Origin: Escherichia coli
Lineage (GTDB): Bacteria; Pseudomonadota; Gammaproteobacteria; Enterobacterales; Enterobacteriaceae
Length of the DNA stretch: 64,000 nt
Direction: 5' to 3' (one strand)
Assembly: GCF_048403405.1 (NCBI RefSeq)
Contig: NZ_CP183129.1
The position numbers were made by a program, and so were the translations under genes. Shown here piece by piece: positions 26,108 through 52,147 of this stretch; within the stretch, counting starts at the first letter, position 1, and every line of letters begins with the position of its first letter. Under the pieces are notes generated by a model. That model did not search any database. It saw only the letters and a list, made by a program, of their open reading frames with translations, and was not told where the DNA came from.

Positions 26108-28387
26108 CTAACGGTTTTTATTGAAGTTAATCAAACTACCCGCCTTGATAATCTCGCGCTCTTCGGCCGTCAGGCTTTCCATGTAAAGCGTAATTTCCGT
26201 TACCGGCGCATCTTCATGGATCACATAACCCTTAAACGTCGTACCCGGATTATCCAGCGCCGCTTTAATGCCTGGGATGTAAATGTAATCACCTACGTCA
26301 AAGTTCGGTGCTTCCGCCATTTGCAGCGGTAACATCCCCCAGTTGATGACGTTAGAACGGTAGCGTTTAGTCGCGTACTCCTCGGCAATATTCGCCAGAC
26401 CGCCAATCACACGCTGACAACTCGCCGCCTGCTCACGCGCAGAACCATCGCCTGGTTTCACCGCATAGACCATGCTGCCAATTTCAGTTTGCAGCGGATC
26501 AATATGCTCCTGACCAGCAATCTGCTTAATGCGCGCAAACACCTCTGTCAGCTCGCTGACATTCCCCGCCAGACGCTGATTTTCCAGTTCAGCAGTCGCT
26601 TTACTTCTGCCAACATAACCTGGATCGCGACGTGACAGGGTAAACTCCGCCAGACCAATCGGATTTGAACGATAAGAAGAGGTTTCACCGGAAGGAATCA
26701 ATTCGTCGGTGGTGGTCACTTCGTCGAGGATCTTCGAGCACACTTTGAGGACGATATTGTCAGTCAGCGCACCCAATTCCGGCCAGTCTTTAATGTTCGG
26801 TCCGTAAATCAGCGGTTGCTGAGTTGCCCCTTTCACAAAGCCCTGATAAACACGGTTTTTATACGGCGTTACATCGAAGGCGTACTCCGGCACGTTGTCC
26901 CAGCAATCAAGTTCGCTGGCAGAGGTTAAATAGCCACCGTTTGCCGCAGTCGCAGCGATAGAACGAGCGTCCATCAACGCCACCGCTGACATCTGCCCAT
27001 TGGCTGGCTTAGAGCCTTCGCGGTTCGGGAAGTTACGCGTGGTGTGGCGAATACTCAAACCGTTGTTGATTGGCGTATCGCCCGCGCCAAAGCATGGGCC
27101 GCAGAACGCGGTTCTGATGATTGCGCCTGCGCCAATCAAATCTGCTACCACACCTTTTTTGGCGAGATCCATAAACACCGGCTGTGATGACGGGTAAACC
27201 GCTAACGAGAAGGTGTCATTGCCACAGGATTGACCGCGCAGTGCATTCGCCGCCGCGATGACGTTTTCGTAGTTACCGCCAGAACAGCCCGCGATAATCC
27301 CCTGCTGCACTTTCAGGCGACCATTTTCCACTTTATCCAGCAGCGAGAGTTTGGCTTTACCGTGCGCCACGCGTTCGGACTCAATTTCAATCTCACGCAG
27401 AATGTCGGTCAGGTTCTGGTTCAGCGTGTCGATTTCATACACGTTGCTCGGGTGAAACGGCAGCGCAATCATTGGTTTGATGGCGCTTAAATCAACGCTG
27501 ATGCAGCCATCGTAGTACGCCATCGGTTGAGGGTTAAGCTGGCAGTAATCCTGGCCGCGACCGTGCAGCGCCAGCCAGTTATGGACTTCTTCATCGGTTT
27601 GCCAGACAGAACTTAAACAGGTCGTTTCAGTGGTCATAACGTCAACGCTGTTACGGAAATCGGTAGAGAGCGCAGCAACACCGGGACCTACGAATTCCAT
27701 CACTTTGTTTTTGACGTAGCCGTTTTTGAACACGGCACCGATGATAGCCAGCGCCACATCCTGTGGCCCCACATACGGCGCTGGTTTTCCGGTCAGATGC
27801 ACCGCAACAACTCCCGGATAGTCGATATCCCAGGTGTCATTAAGCAATTGTTTTACCAACTCGCCGCCGCCCTCACCGACAGCCATTGTCCCTAATGCAC
27901 CGTAACGGGTGTGGCTGTCTGACCCGAGGATCATTTTGCCGCCGCCTGCCATCATCTCACGCATATATTGATGGATGACCGCAATATGCGGAGGCACAAA
28001 AATACCGCCATAACGCTGCGCTGCCGATAAACCAAAAACATGGTCATCACCGTTAATGGTGCCGCCGACGGCGCAAAGTGAGTTATGGCAGTTGGTCAGC
28101 ACATACGGCAGCGGGAAACGTTCCATACCGGACGCTTTAGCAGTCTGTACAATCCCAACAAAGGTAATATCGTGAGAGGCTAATGAATCAAACTTAATTT
28201 TAAGTTTATCCATATTTCCGGACGTATTATGAGAAGAGAGAATAGACCAGGCAATAGTGCCTTTTTTGGCTTCTTCTTTTTTAATTTCGCCGGTGAAATG
28301 TTCTTCGGCAATTATTTCGTTATTACTGGCGAGAAACACGCCTTTTTCAGATAACTTGATCATCAAATGCTCCAGATATCTGCGCAC
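26108..28387 (-). CDS. ybhJ: Aconitase-family putative hydratase YbhJ
   Basis: 759-aa ORF with aconitase-like domains; exact start uncertain (alternative Met at 28363). Confidence 0.85.
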
Positions 28388-28432
28388 CGAGAAGTGCGCA
28401 GAAAGATAATAAATGGATATACTCTAAATAAT

Positions 28433-28545
28433 TAGAGTTGCAGGAAGGCGACTAGCGAGTGAATCCCCAGGCGCTTACATAAGTAAGTGACTGGGGTGAG
28501 CGAACGCAGACGCAGCACATGCAACTTGAAGTATGACGAGTATAT
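28433..28545. repeat. ERIC (IRU) enterobacterial repetitive intergenic consensus element
   Basis: Contains the ERIC core GTGAATCCCCAGG.GCTTACATAAGTAAGTGACTGGGGTGAGCG between ybhJ and ybhI. Confidence 0.8.
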
Positions 28546-29979
28546 TTACAGCATGTTCCAGCCGATCAGCATATTCCACCACCACACGCCGAGGGTGATA
28601 TGTACCAGGAAGGTTAATATCGTCAGTACCGCACCGACCAACCACCAGGATTTAATATCGTTGTAACCCACGCCAAAGATGACCGGACCTGCCGCGCCGC
28701 CATAGTGAGTAACCATGCCGCCATAGGAGTTGGAGAACAACAGTGCCAGCGCGGTTAACATTAACGGTGCGCCGGAGACGTTCGCCAGCATGGCAAATAC
28801 CGGTAACATAGCAACGATATAGGCACTACCGGAAGCGAAGAAATAACGAACGATGATGCTGAGGAAAATAATAACGAAGAAAGCAACGTTACCGTGACCA
28901 TCAAATGCCAGGTTATTTTTAAAGACTTCAGCTAACCATTCGAAGAATTTAACTTTCGATAATAAGGAGCTTAAGCCGATAATACCGCCGTACCAGATTA
29001 AGGTATTCCAGCCGCCTTTATTTTTAACCACGTCTTCCCAGGTAACGATACCCAGCAGCAGCATGGTCGCCATAACAACGATTGCCACGGTGGATTCATC
29101 AACCCCCAGGGACTTACTGAAAATCCAGCCCAGCAGCGCCAGCACAAAGACACCGAGCAGCATTTTTTCGCGGATTTTCATCGGTCCCAGTTCGGCAAGG
29201 CCCGCTTTGGCGATGGTTTTGTTATCCACCTTCTTAATTTCTGGCGGATACATGGTGTAAATCACCAGCGGGGTGACCAGCAGCATAATGATACCCGGCA
29301 ATCCGGCGGCCAGCGCCCATCCACCCCAGCTAATTTGCAGGTGCAGAATGTCGTTGATCATTTTCAGCGCCAGAATGTTCCCCGCCATTGCGGTAAAGAA
29401 CATATAGCTGGTGGTTTTGGTGACCATGTAAATGGACATCATCAGGTAATGTCCGACACGACGCGGACTTTTTTCCGGTTCGGACCCCAAAGCCACCGCC
29501 ACGCTGTTGATGATCGGTAACACAATGCCGCCCGCACGCGCGGTGTTAGACGGTGTTGCCGGAGCCAGTACCAGATCGAGAAATACCGTAACGTAACCCA
29601 GACCCAGGGTAGTGCTACCAATTTTACCAATCAGCAAATAGGCAATACGTTTACCTAAGCCGGTGGTCACAAATGCGGCGCTTAAGGTAAACGCCGAGAA
29701 CACCAGCCAGGTGGTACCTGAAGAGTAACCGCTTAATACGGCGGTGGTTTTAAACGCACCGTCGGATAAGTTACCGACCACCACCATGGAGGCAGCAACG
29801 GCAATTAACAGTACGACAGGTTCCGGGAAAGGCTTGATAACCAGCCCCACAATGGCCGCCAGGTAAATACCAAAAAGCACCCACGCCAGTTCGCTTAATC
29901 CTGCCGGAGCTGGCATAAAGCCAATAATACATGGGATCGCTAATATCAGAATTAGCTTCCATAACGATTTTTTATTCAT
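28546..29979 (-). CDS. ybhI: DASS-family anion transporter YbhI
   Basis: 477-aa polytopic membrane ORF. Confidence 0.9.
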   Translation of the reverse strand: MNKKSLWKLILILAIPCIIGFMPAPAGLSELAWVLFGIYLAAIVGLVIKPFPEPVVLLIAVAASMVVVGNLSDGAFKTTAVLSGYSSGTTWLVFSAFTLSAAFVTTGLGKRIAYLLIGKIGSTTLGLGYVTVFLDLVLAPATPSNTARAGGIVLPIINSVAVALGSEPEKSPRRVGHYLMMSIYMVTKTTSYMFFTAMAGNILALKMINDILHLQISWGGWALAAGLPGIIMLLVTPLVIYTMYPPEIKKVDNKTIAKAGLAELGPMKIREKMLLGVFVLALLGWIFSKSLGVDESTVAIVVMATMLLLGIVTWEDVVKNKGGWNTLIWYGGIIGLSSLLSKVKFFEWLAEVFKNNLAFDGHGNVAFFVIIFLSIIVRYFFASGSAYIVAMLPVFAMLANVSGAPLMLTALALLFSNSYGGMVTHYGGAAGPVIFGVGYNDIKSWWLVGAVLTILTFLVHITLGVWWWNMLIGWNML

Positions 29980-30054
29980 TTAAAATCCTGTTCTTTCTGT
30001 ATGACTCATACAGAAGTCCTTTATTGATTGTCCTTATCCTGACAACGAATTTTT

Positions 30055-31107
30055 TCAGGGAAGAAAAACTTCACCGGAAAATATTTTTCTGGTTGTCCGA
30101 ATAACAGATGCGCGTAACGTCGTGGCATCCTGACCTTCATTACTTAAATGAACGTCGAGCGCACCACTGGGGTGTTCAATATTGATATTGCCGTATCCTA
30201 CAGAAGGGACGATTTGTCGGGTGACGGTGCCTTCCAATGCACAACTACTGGAAATGGCAATAGCACCGGTTATCGCCAGCGCGCGATGGCAAGAATGCGG
30301 CATAAAATAACGCACATTAATTGCTCCGCCTTTCTGCGCTGGAGAAATAAGCACAGGTTTAGGGATAACCATATTACTGACATCGCCTAAGCCCATTGCT
30401 TTACCCGCTTGTAGACGGATAGATTCAATGCGAGCTAATAATGCTTTGTCGGCATCCAGTTCCATCGGTAATTCATAGCCTGTTTTTCCCAGATATTCAG
30501 CAGGAATAATGACAACTGGCATCGCCATATCGATACAGGTCACCGGGACATCGTCAAAATAATCAATCTGATTATCAGTCGGGAAGACTTTTCCGGTTTT
30601 GGTTCCGGCGGCATTCAGGAAAGTGAGCGCAACCGGTGCGGCAGTACCCGGTACGCCGTCAATTCTGGCGCTACCCTCGTACTCGACAACACCATTTGGC
30701 GTTTGCACATCAGCTTCGATGAACGTACCCGTATTGACGTTGCGGATACGTACGCGGGTAACTGGCGAAGTCGCTGCAATCAAACCATTTTCAATAGCGA
30801 ATGCCCCAACGCCAGACAGCATATTGCCGCAGTTAGGCGTGGTATCGACACGTTGCTCATGGACGATAACTTGAGCAAACAGATAATCGACATCAGCACG
30901 CGGATCGCTGGAACGGCTAATAATGGCGACTTTACTGGTCAGCGGATTACCGCCGCCAATACCGTCAATTTCCAGATCGTTACCGGAACCCATAATTGCC
31001 ATCAATATTTTATCGCGCTGCGTTTGATCTTCGGGTAGATGTTCCGCTAACAGGAACGCGCCCCTCGAGGTTCCACCTCGCATCATCACGCAGGGTATTT
31101 TTTTCAT
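30055..31107 (-). CDS. ybhH: PrpF-family isomerase-like protein YbhH
   Basis: 350-aa ORF. Confidence 0.88.
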   Translation of the reverse strand: MKKIPCVMMRGGTSRGAFLLAEHLPEDQTQRDKILMAIMGSGNDLEIDGIGGGNPLTSKVAIISRSSDPRADVDYLFAQVIVHEQRVDTTPNCGNMLSGVGAFAIENGLIAATSPVTRVRIRNVNTGTFIEADVQTPNGVVEYEGSARIDGVPGTAAPVALTFLNAAGTKTGKVFPTDNQIDYFDDVPVTCIDMAMPVVIIPAEYLGKTGYELPMELDADKALLARIESIRLQAGKAMGLGDVSNMVIPKPVLISPAQKGGAINVRYFMPHSCHRALAITGAIAISSSCALEGTVTRQIVPSVGYGNINIEHPSGALDVHLSNEGQDATTLRASVIRTTRKIFSGEVFLP

Positions 31108-31290
31108 AATAATGCCCTCAATTTAAAAACATAACTTATTGCGATATGGTTACATTAAGGGCAAAGCATCTCTAATGACTTTAGCTCAACGATTAATAAC
31201 ATTTTTTCATTAATTTAAGTTAGCTAAATGCAGTTAAAATTTTTAACGGCCAGTCACCCAAAATCGACGCTTCCATTTTCCGGAGTAATA

Positions 31291-32244
31291 ATGAAGCATG
31301 AATTATCAAGTATGAAGGCATTTGTCATACTGGCAGAGTCCAGTTCATTTAACAATGCCGCTAAATTACTCAATATTACGCAACCTGCATTAACGCGAAG
31401 AATAAAAAAGATGGAGGAAGATTTACATATCCAACTATTTGAGCGTACAACTCGCAAGGTTACGTTAACAAAAGCAGGAAAAAGATTGCTCCCGGAGGCG
31501 CGGGAATTAATAAAGAAATTCGATGAAACGCTTTTTAATATTCGTGATATGAATGCTTATCATCGTGGTATGGTGACATTAGCGTGTATTCCGACCGCAG
31601 TATTTTATTTTTTACCGCTGGCAATCGGTAAATTTAATGAGCTTTATCCCAATATTAAAGTGCGGATTCTGGAACAAGGTACGAATAATTGCATGGAATC
31701 GGTGCTGTGTAACGAATCAGACTTTGGCATAAACATGAACAACGTCACAAATTCATCCATTGATTTTACCCCACTGGTCAACGAGCCGTTCGTGCTGGCC
31801 TGTCGGCGTGACCATCCATTGGCCAAAAAGCAGCTTGTAGAATGGCAGGAGTTAGTGGGTTACAAAATGATTGGCGTACGCTCCTCCAGCGGCAACCGAC
31901 TGTTGATAGAACAACAGCTGGCCGACAAGCCCTGGAAGCTGGACTGGTTTTACGAAGTGCGTCATCTTTCGACGTCATTAGGACTGGTGGAGGCGGGACT
32001 GGGGATTTCGGCGCTTCCTGGTCTGGCAATGCCCCATGCACCCTATTCTTCGATTATTGGTATCCCGCTGGTGGAACCGGTTATACGTCGGACATTGGGG
32101 ATTATTCGCCGCAAAGATGCCGTGCTTTCTCCGGCAGCTGAACGCTTTTTTGCCTTGCTGATTAATTTGTGGACTGACGATAAAGACAATTTGTGGACCA
32201 ATATCGTCGAACGCCAGAGACATGCGTTACAGGAGATAGGTTAA
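31291..32244 (+). CDS. ybhD: LysR-family transcriptional regulator YbhD
   Basis: ORF 31228-32244; start at MKHELSSMKAF (31291) giving 317 aa; N-terminal HTH; divergent from ybhH. Confidence 0.88.
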   Translation: MKHELSSMKAFVILAESSSFNNAAKLLNITQPALTRRIKKMEEDLHIQLFERTTRKVTLTKAGKRLLPEARELIKKFDETLFNIRDMNAYHRGMVTLACIPTAVFYFLPLAIGKFNELYPNIKVRILEQGTNNCMESVLCNESDFGINMNNVTNSSIDFTPLVNEPFVLACRRDHPLAKKQLVEWQELVGYKMIGVRSSSGNRLLIEQQLADKPWKLDWFYEVRHLSTSLGLVEAGLGISALPGLAMPHAPYSSIIGIPLVEPVIRRTLGIIRRKDAVLSPAAERFFALLINLWTDDKDNLWTNIVERQRHALQEIG

Positions 32245-50066: not shown

Positions 50067-50083
50067 TTGGTGGGTCGTGCAGG
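50067..50083 (-). pseudogene. 17-nt 3'-terminal fragment of tRNA-Lys (TCCTGCACGACCCACCA) abutting the terminator
   Basis: Exact match to the 3' end of the intact tRNA-Lys copies; 5' part replaced by unrelated sequence. Confidence 0.6.
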
Positions 50084-50165
50084 ATGACTCGCTTCGCTCG
50101 CCCTACGGGCCGTTGCTGGCGCAACGTTATCCTTCACGCTTAACATCTGAGTTTGATGTTAAAAT

Positions 50166-50241
50166 TGGTGGGTCGTGCAGGATTCGAACCTGCGACCAAT
50201 TGATTAAAAGTCAACTGCTCTACCAACTGAGCTAACGACCC
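50166..50241 (-). tRNA. tRNA-Lys (anticodon UUU)
   Basis: Minus-strand 76-nt sequence GGGTCGTTAGCTCAGTTGGTAGAGCAGTTGACTTTTAATCAATTGGTCGCAGGTTCGAATCCTGCACGACCCACCA; fifth gene in transcription order. Confidence 0.95.
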
Positions 50242-50244
50242 GAG

Positions 50245-50320
50245 TGGTGGGTGATGACGGGATCGAACCGCCGACCCCCTCCTTGTAAGGGAGGTGCTCT
50301 CCCAGCTGAGCTAATCACCC
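50245..50320 (-). tRNA. tRNA-Val (anticodon UAC)
   Basis: Minus-strand GGGTGATTAGCTCAGCTGGGAGAGCACCTCCCTTACAAGGAGGGGGTCGGCGGTTCGATCCCGTCATCACCCACCA. Confidence 0.95.
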
Positions 50321-50371
50321 GATACTGCGCTGGATACTACAAACTACTTCCACCGAACCCACCGTAATTAG

Positions 50372-50447
50372 TGGTGGGTCGTGCAGGATTCGAACCTGCG
50401 ACCAATTGATTAAAAGTCAACTGCTCTACCAACTGAGCTAACGACCC
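50372..50447 (-). tRNA. tRNA-Lys (anticodon UUU)
   Basis: Identical to the other tRNA-Lys copies. Confidence 0.95.
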
Positions 50448-50449
50448 GG

Positions 50450-50525
50450 TGGTGGGTGATGACGGGATCGAACCGCCGACCCCCTCCTTGTAAGGGAGGT
50501 GCTCTCCCAGCTGAGCTAATCACCC
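50450..50525 (-). tRNA. tRNA-Val (anticodon UAC)
   Basis: Identical to the other tRNA-Val copy. Confidence 0.95.
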
Positions 50526-50560
50526 GATACTACGCTGGATACTACAACTAACTAGGTTAG

Positions 50561-50636
50561 TGGTGGGTCGTGCAGGATTCGAACCTGCGACCAATTGATT
50601 AAAAGTCAACTGCTCTACCAACTGAGCTAACGACCC
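50561..50636 (-). tRNA. tRNA-Lys (anticodon UUU); first gene of the array
   Basis: Identical to the other tRNA-Lys copies; promoter expected at about 50640-50750. Confidence 0.95.
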
Positions 50637-50800: not shown

Positions 50801-51592
50801 TTACATCGCGTTCAGACGTTTTTGTGCCTGTTTAGCGCCATCAGTACCAGGGTATTTACTGATAACCTGCTGGTATACGGCTTTCGCTTTTGCGGTGTCA
50901 CCTTTGTCCTGCATGATGACACCGACTTTAAACATCGCATCTGCAGCCTTTGGCGACTTCGGATAGTTTTTTACTACCGAAGCAAAATAGTACGCCGCAT
51001 CATCTTTTTTACCCTTGTTGTAGTTTAACTGACCCAGCCAATAATTGGCGTTTGGCAGGTAAGTTGAATCAGGGTAATTTTTGATGAAATTCTGAAATGC
51101 CACCATTGCGTCATCCTGGCGGGATTTATCCTGCACCAGCGCAATTGCTGCATTGTAATCCGTGTTTGCATCGCCGCTTTTCACCGGCGCGCCAGCATTC
51201 GCAGTACCAGCATCAGCTGTCGGCGTCGTTGATGCCGCCGCACCGCTTTGATCACCGCTGGTTGATTGCGCCGCTGCACCACCGCTGCTGAGGCTATCGA
51301 TCTGCAACAGGATCTGCTTTTGCCGCTCCACGACCTGATTCAGTTGATACTGATTTTCCTGAATCTGACCACGCAGGGAATCAATATCGGATTGATTATC
51401 AGAGAGTTGTTGCTGGAGTTGGGTTAAAAGCTGGCTGTGAGCATTTGAAATACGCTCAAGTTGAGTGACGCGGTCTTCGACCGAGCCTGAGCCGACACTA
51501 CTGATTGGTGCCTGAGCAAAAGCGGCCCAGGGGGCCGCTATACCAACCAGTAACGACAGACTCAATAGTTGATGTCTGAAGTTACTGCTCAT
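50801..51592 (-). CDS. cpoB: Cell division coordinator CpoB (YbgF), TPR protein
   Basis: 263 aa with signal peptide, coiled-coil and C-terminal TPR region. Confidence 0.94.
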   Translation of the reverse strand: MSSNFRHQLLSLSLLVGIAAPWAAFAQAPISSVGSGSVEDRVTQLERISNAHSQLLTQLQQQLSDNQSDIDSLRGQIQENQYQLNQVVERQKQILLQIDSLSSGGAAAQSTSGDQSGAAASTTPTADAGTANAGAPVKSGDANTDYNAAIALVQDKSRQDDAMVAFQNFIKNYPDSTYLPNANYWLGQLNYNKGKKDDAAYYFASVVKNYPKSPKAADAMFKVGVIMQDKGDTAKAKAVYQQVISKYPGTDGAKQAQKRLNAM

Positions 51593-51601
51593 GCAATTCT
51601 C

Positions 51602-52147
<546 letters not shown>

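Follow-up and report, generated by a model that had tools for sequence, protein, structure and literature searches.

The locus described here raised the question of whether a repeat element lodged between two genes of a conserved cluster has an effect on their expression or is simply carried along. Whether the ERIC elements of Escherichia coli do anything is an old question and, to our knowledge, one that is still poorly tested. The window (the whole stretch of DNA that was analyzed, 64,000 nucleotides of E. coli contig NZ_CP183129.1) contains such an element between ybhI and ybhJ, and a first-pass annotation had proposed that it may form a stable RNA hairpin affecting mRNA stability or polarity within a ybhJ-ybhI-ybhH unit.

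The ybhH-ybhI-ybhJ locus

The element is flanked by the following genes.

30055 to 31107, minus strand: ybhH, PrpF-family isomerase, first gene of the cluster (open reading frame, RefSeq annotation, Pfam, conserved cluster)
28546 to 29979, minus strand: ybhI, DASS-family anion/carboxylate transporter (open reading frame, RefSeq annotation, Pfam Na_sulph_symp with an E value of 1e-194)
26108 to 28363, minus strand: ybhJ, aconitase-family hydratase (open reading frame, RefSeq annotation, Pfam Aconitase with an E value of 5e-88)

As all of these genes lie on the minus strand, the order of transcription is ybhH, ybhI, ERIC and ybhJ, with ybhH located 75 nt upstream of ybhI. The unit proposed in the first-pass annotation was therefore upheld as a conserved co-directional cluster, but with its order reversed to ybhH-ybhI-ybhJ. 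The ybhI stop codon is a TAA at 28548 to 28546, with one base (28545) between it and ERIC. In RefSeq, ybhJ starts with an ATG at 28363, and a Shine-Dalgarno sequence, GGAG, is present at 28373 to 28370. This start gives a gap of 182 bp between the two genes; the 158 bp given previously came from the longest open reading frame, which begins with a GTG at 28387, and has to be replaced. Over the 701 nt around ERIC, identity was 100% to strain TUM14771 and 98.7% to K-12 derivatives.

Two changes in the neighboring coding sequences were detected. The window ybhJ is two codons shorter than that of K-12 due to a CGT TAG at 26108 to 26110, where CGT CAG is found in other strains, and its product has 751 rather than 753 amino acids. 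E. coli O157:H7 RV06 (labeled a "culture mutant"; locus L173) has lost 18 bp in frame close to the 3' end of ybhI, at a place equivalent to window positions 28557 to 28574. An O157 match with 96% identity (H39) was considered as a potential internal deletion of ERIC and rejected, as the 18-bp deletion lies in the coding end of ybhI and outside the element.

Identity and extent of the ERIC element

Analysis of the spacer indicated the presence of a complete element with a typical core.

28418 to 28544, minus strand: complete ERIC (IRU/RU-1), 127 bp (core, terminal inverted repeats, boundaries from filled and empty sites, identity to a printed consensus and a full-length, sub-threshold match to RF02818)
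28459 to 28502, plus strand: central core inverted repeat of ERIC, identical to the consensus core at 43 of 44 positions

The 44-nt core GTGAATCCCCAGGAGCTTACATAAGTAAGTGACTGGGGTGAGCG was detected at 28459 to 28502 on the plus strand with one mismatch, and matches to it were absent from all of 100 dinucleotide-preserving shuffles; an ERIC core in the gap between the two genes, as first claimed, was thereby confirmed. The arms of the core inverted repeat occupy 28465 to 28478 and 28483 to 28496, while terminal inverted repeats with arms that are 77% complementary lie at approximately 28417 to 28442 and 28520 to 28545, and the element from 28418 to 28544 has a TA at either end. A span of 28433 to 28545 had been assigned to the element, which identified it correctly but started 15 nt too late, within the left terminal repeat, and ran 1 nt too far at the other end.

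Comparison with a printed Salmonella copy detected identity at 116 of 127 positions, and alignment with the printed E. coli consensus contained 113 identities in 130 columns (both from PMC2759123). The same copy is also present in K-12, and the window allele differs from the common E. coli allele by three private substitutions. E. coli genomes had a median of 10 BLAST places for ERIC (range, 2 to 17), and 19 to 21 copies have been described for K-12 (PMC2267715). The identity of the element as an ERIC is certain, and its family and its presence in K-12 make it a repeat of an already known kind. The ERIC, IRU or RU-1 elements of the Enterobacteriaceae were reportedly the subject of work by Sharples and Lloyd in 1990, Hulton et al. 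in 1991, and Wilson and Sharp in 2006. The window copy resembles these elements in its 127-bp length, core, terminal inverted repeats, TA termini with a duplicated TA target, intergenic position inside a gene cluster, multicopy nature and long hairpin, and there was no essential difference. A ybhHIJ mRNA, which is of the minus strand, would read the element as 5'-UAUACUCGUCAUAC...UUAUUUAGAGUAUA-3', the reverse complement of the orientation in which the ERIC consensus is usually written.

Insertion site and occupancy among genomes

Comparison of loci with and without the element enabled the insertion to be defined to the base. The sequence is CTGTAAA-TA-TCC at empty sites and CTGTAAA-TA[125 nt]TA-TCC at filled ones, a clean duplication of a TA target; an empty spacer of 57 nt and a filled one of 182 nt differ by exactly these 125 nt. 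Such a duplication is known to be characteristic of ERIC and of elements like it (PMC2229807 and PMC3184786).

28418 to 28419: TA target-site duplication, copy 1, proximal to ybhJ (filled versus empty sites)
28543 to 28544: TA target-site duplication, copy 2, proximal to ybhI (filled versus empty sites)

A scan with YbhI in one genome per species returned 50 loci, in which the following states of the spacer were observed.

Filled, same position and orientation, spacer of 182 nt: E. coli, strain E69 (L002), E. whittamii (L018) and E. albertii (L005)
Empty, spacers of 57 and 67 nt: Escherichia lineages L003 and L004
Empty, spacers of 26 to 91 nt: Citrobacter and Edwardsiella
Empty, spacer of 197 nt: Intestinirhabdus

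Occupancy within E. coli was then examined in 5,426 complete genomes, 5,374 of which matched the flanks. A query of 700 nt of joined flanks returned filled sites in two pieces for all of its top matches, and the two states were separated with a 56-nt query spanning the empty junction. With a strict E value, this junction was matched by exactly 1 of the 5,426 genomes, that of strain GF4-3 from guinea fowl (L052; NZ_CP053258.1, 1428794 to 1428852), which has an ERIC-free ybhI-ybhJ spacer of 57 nt. A comparison with strains lacking the element had been put forward in the first-pass annotation, and the single TA at the empty sites of L003, L004 and GF4-3 bore out the insertion. These results indicated that this ERIC copy is ancient and essentially fixed in E. 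coli. The element is also dispensable, as one natural E. coli strain and two Escherichia lineages are without it.

The ybhI and ybhJ genes of GF4-3 are those of an ordinary E. coli strain, differing by 1.3 to 2.6% from K-12 and the window, but its spacer is identical to that of L003 at 56 of 57 positions, and the L003 variant is also present at one site close by in ybhI. This combination of E. coli-like flanks with an L003-like spacer and ybhI site suggests that a short empty patch was imported by recombination, or else that an old allele was kept. Since ERIC is present in E. albertii, the most divergent of the species compared, the distribution could have arisen either from one old gain with a later precise loss or from movement of alleles between lineages. 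The L004 spacer (Escherichia sp. MOD1-EC7003, 4435 to 4501) contains 10 extra nt, TTATTTAAAA, directly after the ybhI stop codon, and these are similar to the beginning of the Edwardsiella spacer, TAATTATTT.... Due to this similarity, L004 may have kept the ancestral form, with a 10-bp deletion having preceded the insertion of ERIC in the other lineages. Being filled in virtually all E. coli strains, precisely empty in GF4-3 and of either state in sister species, the locus is a clean natural experiment on the function of ERIC in E. coli.

Transcription and predicted folding of the spacer

The element is intergenic between co-directional genes of a conserved cluster. A consensus scan of 28000 to 31400 found no promoter-like or terminator-like site within 28364 to 28545 on either strand. 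The conserved co-directional order, the short ancestral spacers and this lack of promoter- or terminator-like sites in the gap indicate that ERIC is most probably transcribed within a ybhH-ybhI-ybhJ mRNA, and conservation of the cluster across genera agreed with the earlier description of the flanking genes as co-transcribed in appearance. A 2022 study dealt with a ybhHI cluster and handled ybhJ separately (PMC9068703); as ybhHI is spoken of there as the regulated unit, ybhJ may lie outside the ybhHI transcript. According to the same study, ybhH is strongly increased when ybhD is deleted. None of the papers searched linked ERIC to ybhI or ybhJ.

The proposal of a stable RNA hairpin was supported by folding in silico, in which the mRNA-sense strand of ERIC formed a self-contained hairpin of -45.6 kcal/mol (z = -6.6). 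This is the weaker of the two folds, with values of -54.7 kcal/mol and -8.0 for the opposite strand. The hairpin was preserved across 35 distinct copies from several genera, with 27 consensus pairs, 6 of which had compensatory changes. In a context of 282 nt, ERIC behaved as a separate folding module and the flanks paired as they do in the ERIC-free spacer of GF4-3. The mean unpaired probability of the ybhJ Shine-Dalgarno region was 0.33 to 0.36 with ERIC and 0.43 without it, and hence the element is predicted to make the ribosome-binding site of ybhJ only slightly less accessible.

A second structure was detected in the same untranslated spacer, outside ERIC.

28379 to 28402, minus strand: perfect 9-bp stem-loop, UCUGCGCAC-UUCUCG-GUGCGCAGA (inverted-repeat search)

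This stem-loop has a folding energy of -17 kcal/mol and lies between ERIC and the ybhJ Shine-Dalgarno sequence, 5 nt upstream of the latter. It was found in all Escherichia loci, with or without ERIC, and only its loop varied. A hairpin of different sequence occupied the same place in most loci of Citrobacter, Edwardsiella and Intestinirhabdus. Retention of the stem-loop in Escherichia and its replacement elsewhere by a hairpin of another sequence suggest that a structurally conserved RNA element may precede this aconitase-family gene.

Taken together, we favor the reading that this is an old, fixed ERIC that is probably co-transcribed as a hairpin and has at most a modest post-transcriptional effect, and we give this reading a probability of about 0.55. 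The element inserted at a TA located a single base past the stop codon of ybhI and expanded an ancestral spacer of 57 nt to 182 nt. In the ybhHIJ mRNA it is predicted to fold into a long, self-contained hairpin that would bring its two flanks back together. Its activity would be modest, with an intercistronic hairpin shifting the stability of the ybhHI part of the transcript relative to the ybhJ part, by impeding 3'-to-5' exonucleases or by giving an RNase a point of entry after the outer stem has been melted by a terminating ribosome. The element would not serve as a promoter, a terminator or a block to translation. Any regulatory role of ERIC in this scheme is one that we infer, with the ERICs of Yersinia as its precedent.

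Conservation of the element and its causes

The main rival to this reading is that ERIC is a neutral passenger, a fixed relic of transposition that has no effect on ybhHIJ, is tolerated as a self-folding palindrome and is kept uniform by gene conversion. We consider this explanation a substantial possibility, though a somewhat doubtful one. The absence of the element from GF4-3, L003 and L004 without obvious consequence is consistent with a passenger, as is the small effect predicted for the ybhJ ribosome-binding site. Retention in approximately 5,373 of the 5,374 flank-matching E. coli genomes, and in species with up to 36% silent divergence, is long for a neutral insert of 127 bp. Furthermore, the compensatory changes seen across the family argue that pairing itself is maintained. 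The degree of conservation of the element was therefore examined as evidence bearing on both explanations.

Orthologous ERIC copies differed at only 0 to 4 of 127 positions, with no differences between E69 and E. albertii and 1 between K-12 and E. albertii. The fourfold-degenerate sites of ybhI and ybhJ differed by 18 to 36% between species, and the 600 nt of adjoining coding sequence had 59 to 63 differences from E. albertii (Fisher p values of 5e-17 and 3e-20). This gap of about 30-fold between ERIC and the neighboring silent sites measures how constant ERICs are held, whatever the process responsible. Transfer of the spacer between species was tried as a cause of this conservation and rejected: the coding sequence diverges normally up to both edges of the spacer, with normal levels returning within a few bases, so that recent transfer is not the cause.

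Other ERIC loci were obtained from metagenome contigs by a scan with the ERIC2 primer sequence, and the copies at at least eight other E. coli-type loci were found to differ from the ybhI-ybhJ copy by 0 to 4 nt. These paralogous copies contained no locus-specific markers and were too similar for selection to be separated from gene conversion. As other E. coli copies are as close as this, gene conversion among copies would explain the conservation of ERIC as well as selection would, and both the similarity of the paralogs and the lack of a locus-specific signature fit the passenger explanation. The unique 54 nt of the spacer, however, also differed at only 0 to 4 positions across species. This sequence is beyond the reach of homogenization by conversion and is equally conserved, which speaks for some genuine constraint on the spacer and runs counter to a mere passenger. 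On the strength of this pattern, it could be supposed that the ERIC hairpin and the stem-loop before the ybhJ ribosome-binding site are selected together as a single intercistronic RNA module setting the ratio of YbhI to YbhJ, with conservation arising from selection and not from conversion and with an RNase or an RNA-binding protein possibly being involved. The aconitases AcnA and AcnB bind mRNA, and YbhJ would hence be a candidate for such a protein. We regard a module of this kind as quite unlikely.

Changes within the core provided a further indication of processes acting on the hairpin. In E. whittamii (L018, 4435 to 4563), three adjacent changes in the core, GCTCC to GTGAC, make the core arms perfectly complementary, and a T-to-G change in the window (28470 to 28474) is one step in the same direction. 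From their sequence, these changes look like quasi-palindrome correction by template switching. Such correction points to processes at the level of DNA and would be compatible with a passenger.

Some copies in the metagenome contigs had unusual structures. In four contigs (L075, L101, L146 and L077), a left flank belonging to one ERIC locus was joined to a right flank belonging to a different one; the ybhI flank, for instance, forms the end of L075, and L101 starts in the ybhJ flank. Chimeric assembly across the repeat is the most likely origin of these contigs, with recombination between ERIC copies as a possible alternative. Six copies (L058, L066, L073, L074, L098 and L166) contained extra sequence inside the element just past the core, e.g., GACAAATCTGCCGGGAGCAGATTTGAACGCTG.... 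Longer ERIC variants with internal insertions are known, and these copies recall them.

Orientation of the element and comparison with Yersinia

The proximity of the element to the ybhI stop codon suggested a comparison with the ERICs of Yersinia enterocolitica. Work by De Gregorio et al. (2005), as described in reviews (PMC2229807, PMC3184786 and PMC10969869), indicated that the ERICs of Yersinia are transcribed together with their neighboring genes and that, depending on their orientation, they change how stable the upstream transcripts are, and a mechanism in which ribosomes unmask part of the element has been proposed for those copies that lie beside stop codons (reviewed in PMC2229807 and PMC10969869). 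The window copy belongs to the same family, is probably co-transcribed between two genes and, with one base between the TAA and ERIC, lies directly beside an upstream stop codon. It differs in being present in an orientation that was rare near stop codons in the survey described below. The effect in Yersinia is reportedly tied, in the study of De Gregorio et al. from 2005, to the orientation preferred beside stop codons.

Orientation was surveyed in 33 distinct full-length ERIC loci from metagenome contigs, a small sample in which open reading frames were called crudely. Among the elements situated no more than 20 nt after a stop codon, 12 of 15 were read in the opposite sense and 3, including this locus, were read as in the window. 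A similar distribution was observed for elements between co-directional genes, with 12 of 14 in the opposite orientation and 2 like the window copy. The window copy is thus in the minority orientation and not in the one typical of stop-proximal elements. The common reading of ERIC contains stop codons in two frames within the first 14 nt, and the reading found at the window locus is open throughout one frame (PMC2759123). An orientation bias makes sense in light of this difference between an early-terminated reading and one with an open frame.

A Yersinia-type RNase E switch would operate by a terminating ribosome melting the 5' terminal repeat and exposing the AU-rich 3' repeat CUCUAAUUAUUUAGAGUAUA, with the result that ybhHI mRNA decays faster than ybhJ mRNA. 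The proximity of ERIC to the ybhI stop codon, at a distance of 1 nt, and the mechanism proposed for Yersinia in reviews (PMC2229807 and PMC10969869) are in accord with such a switch. In order to mimic a terminating ribosome in silico, 30 nt around the ybhI stop codon were blocked, and this opened the outer stem. In the K-12 allele, the unpaired probability of the AAUUAUUUAGAG segment in the AU-rich 3' terminal repeat increased from 0.35 to 0.58, as the switch would predict. The window allele, by contrast, exhibited hardly any change in the 3' terminal repeat (0.45 to 0.42), since a private G-to-U substitution enables this repeat to form a small hairpin of its own. With most stop-proximal ERICs also having the opposite orientation (12 of 15), a switch of this type is unlikely at this locus. 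We have kept the window ERIC out of the class of elements with RNase E unmasking and leave any effect unassigned as to direction, which could be destabilizing or stabilizing.

A transcriptional boundary, in which the ERIC hairpin and the U-rich tract UCCAUUUAUUAUCUUUCU form a partial terminator that splits ybhHI from ybhJ or in which ERIC supplies a ybhJ promoter, would fit the treatment of ybhHI as a regulated unit (PMC9068703) and the U-rich stretch after a long hairpin, but it is very unlikely given that a scan of both strands of the spacer detected no site resembling a terminator or a sigma-70 promoter, that the base of the ERIC stem is AU rich and the U tract downstream is interrupted, and that the tract is already present in ERIC-free spacers and so is no part of a terminator built by ERIC.

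Relation to other repeats and RNA families

An old, fixed hairpin with a modest post-transcriptional effect, as favored above, has parallels in other bacterial repeats. REP elements and BIMEs are likewise repeated palindromes that are transcribed inside E. coli operons in intercistronic positions. Their RNA hairpins can shield upstream mRNA from 3' exonucleases and thereby produce differential expression. A study by Higgins et al. (1982) is cited in PMC3184786. They differ from ERIC in belonging to another sequence family, in having far shorter units (about 35 to 40 nt) and in being without a bounding TA duplication. The Correia or NEMIS elements of Neisseria resemble ERIC in their length of 100 to 160 bp, their TA ends, their co-transcription and their processing as RNA hairpins (PMC10969869 and PMC2229807). 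They are unrelated in sequence and, unlike the window ERIC, which has no promoter-like site, some carry promoters or IHF sites; they are processed by RNase III, which acts at their terminal repeats.

ERIC is not represented by a family of its own in Rfam, and no match at the gathering level was detected in or near the ERIC region. A sub-threshold match was obtained for RF02818 (V_AS5, Vibrio RNA AS5), positions 1 to 129 of which aligned with 28417 to 28540 on the plus strand at 34.9 bits (E values of 2e-5 to 3e-6). The gathering score of this family is 96 bits, far above the value observed, and the window ERIC is not a member. The two share a core and a hairpin, and differ in that the strand matched by RF02818 is not the one carried in the ybhHIJ mRNA. 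Vibrio cholerae carries ERIC copies (PMC2267715); given this and the end-to-end alignment with an E. coli ERIC, the V_AS5 family appears to have been built on an ERIC-derived transcript. Elsewhere in the window, matches above the gathering level were detected at 51563 to 51701, 15128 to 15272 and 50068 to 50636, all on the minus strand. These corresponded to the cpoB/ybgF thermometer, the Moco riboswitch, and five tRNAs and RtT RNA, which are expected features of this region of the E. coli chromosome.
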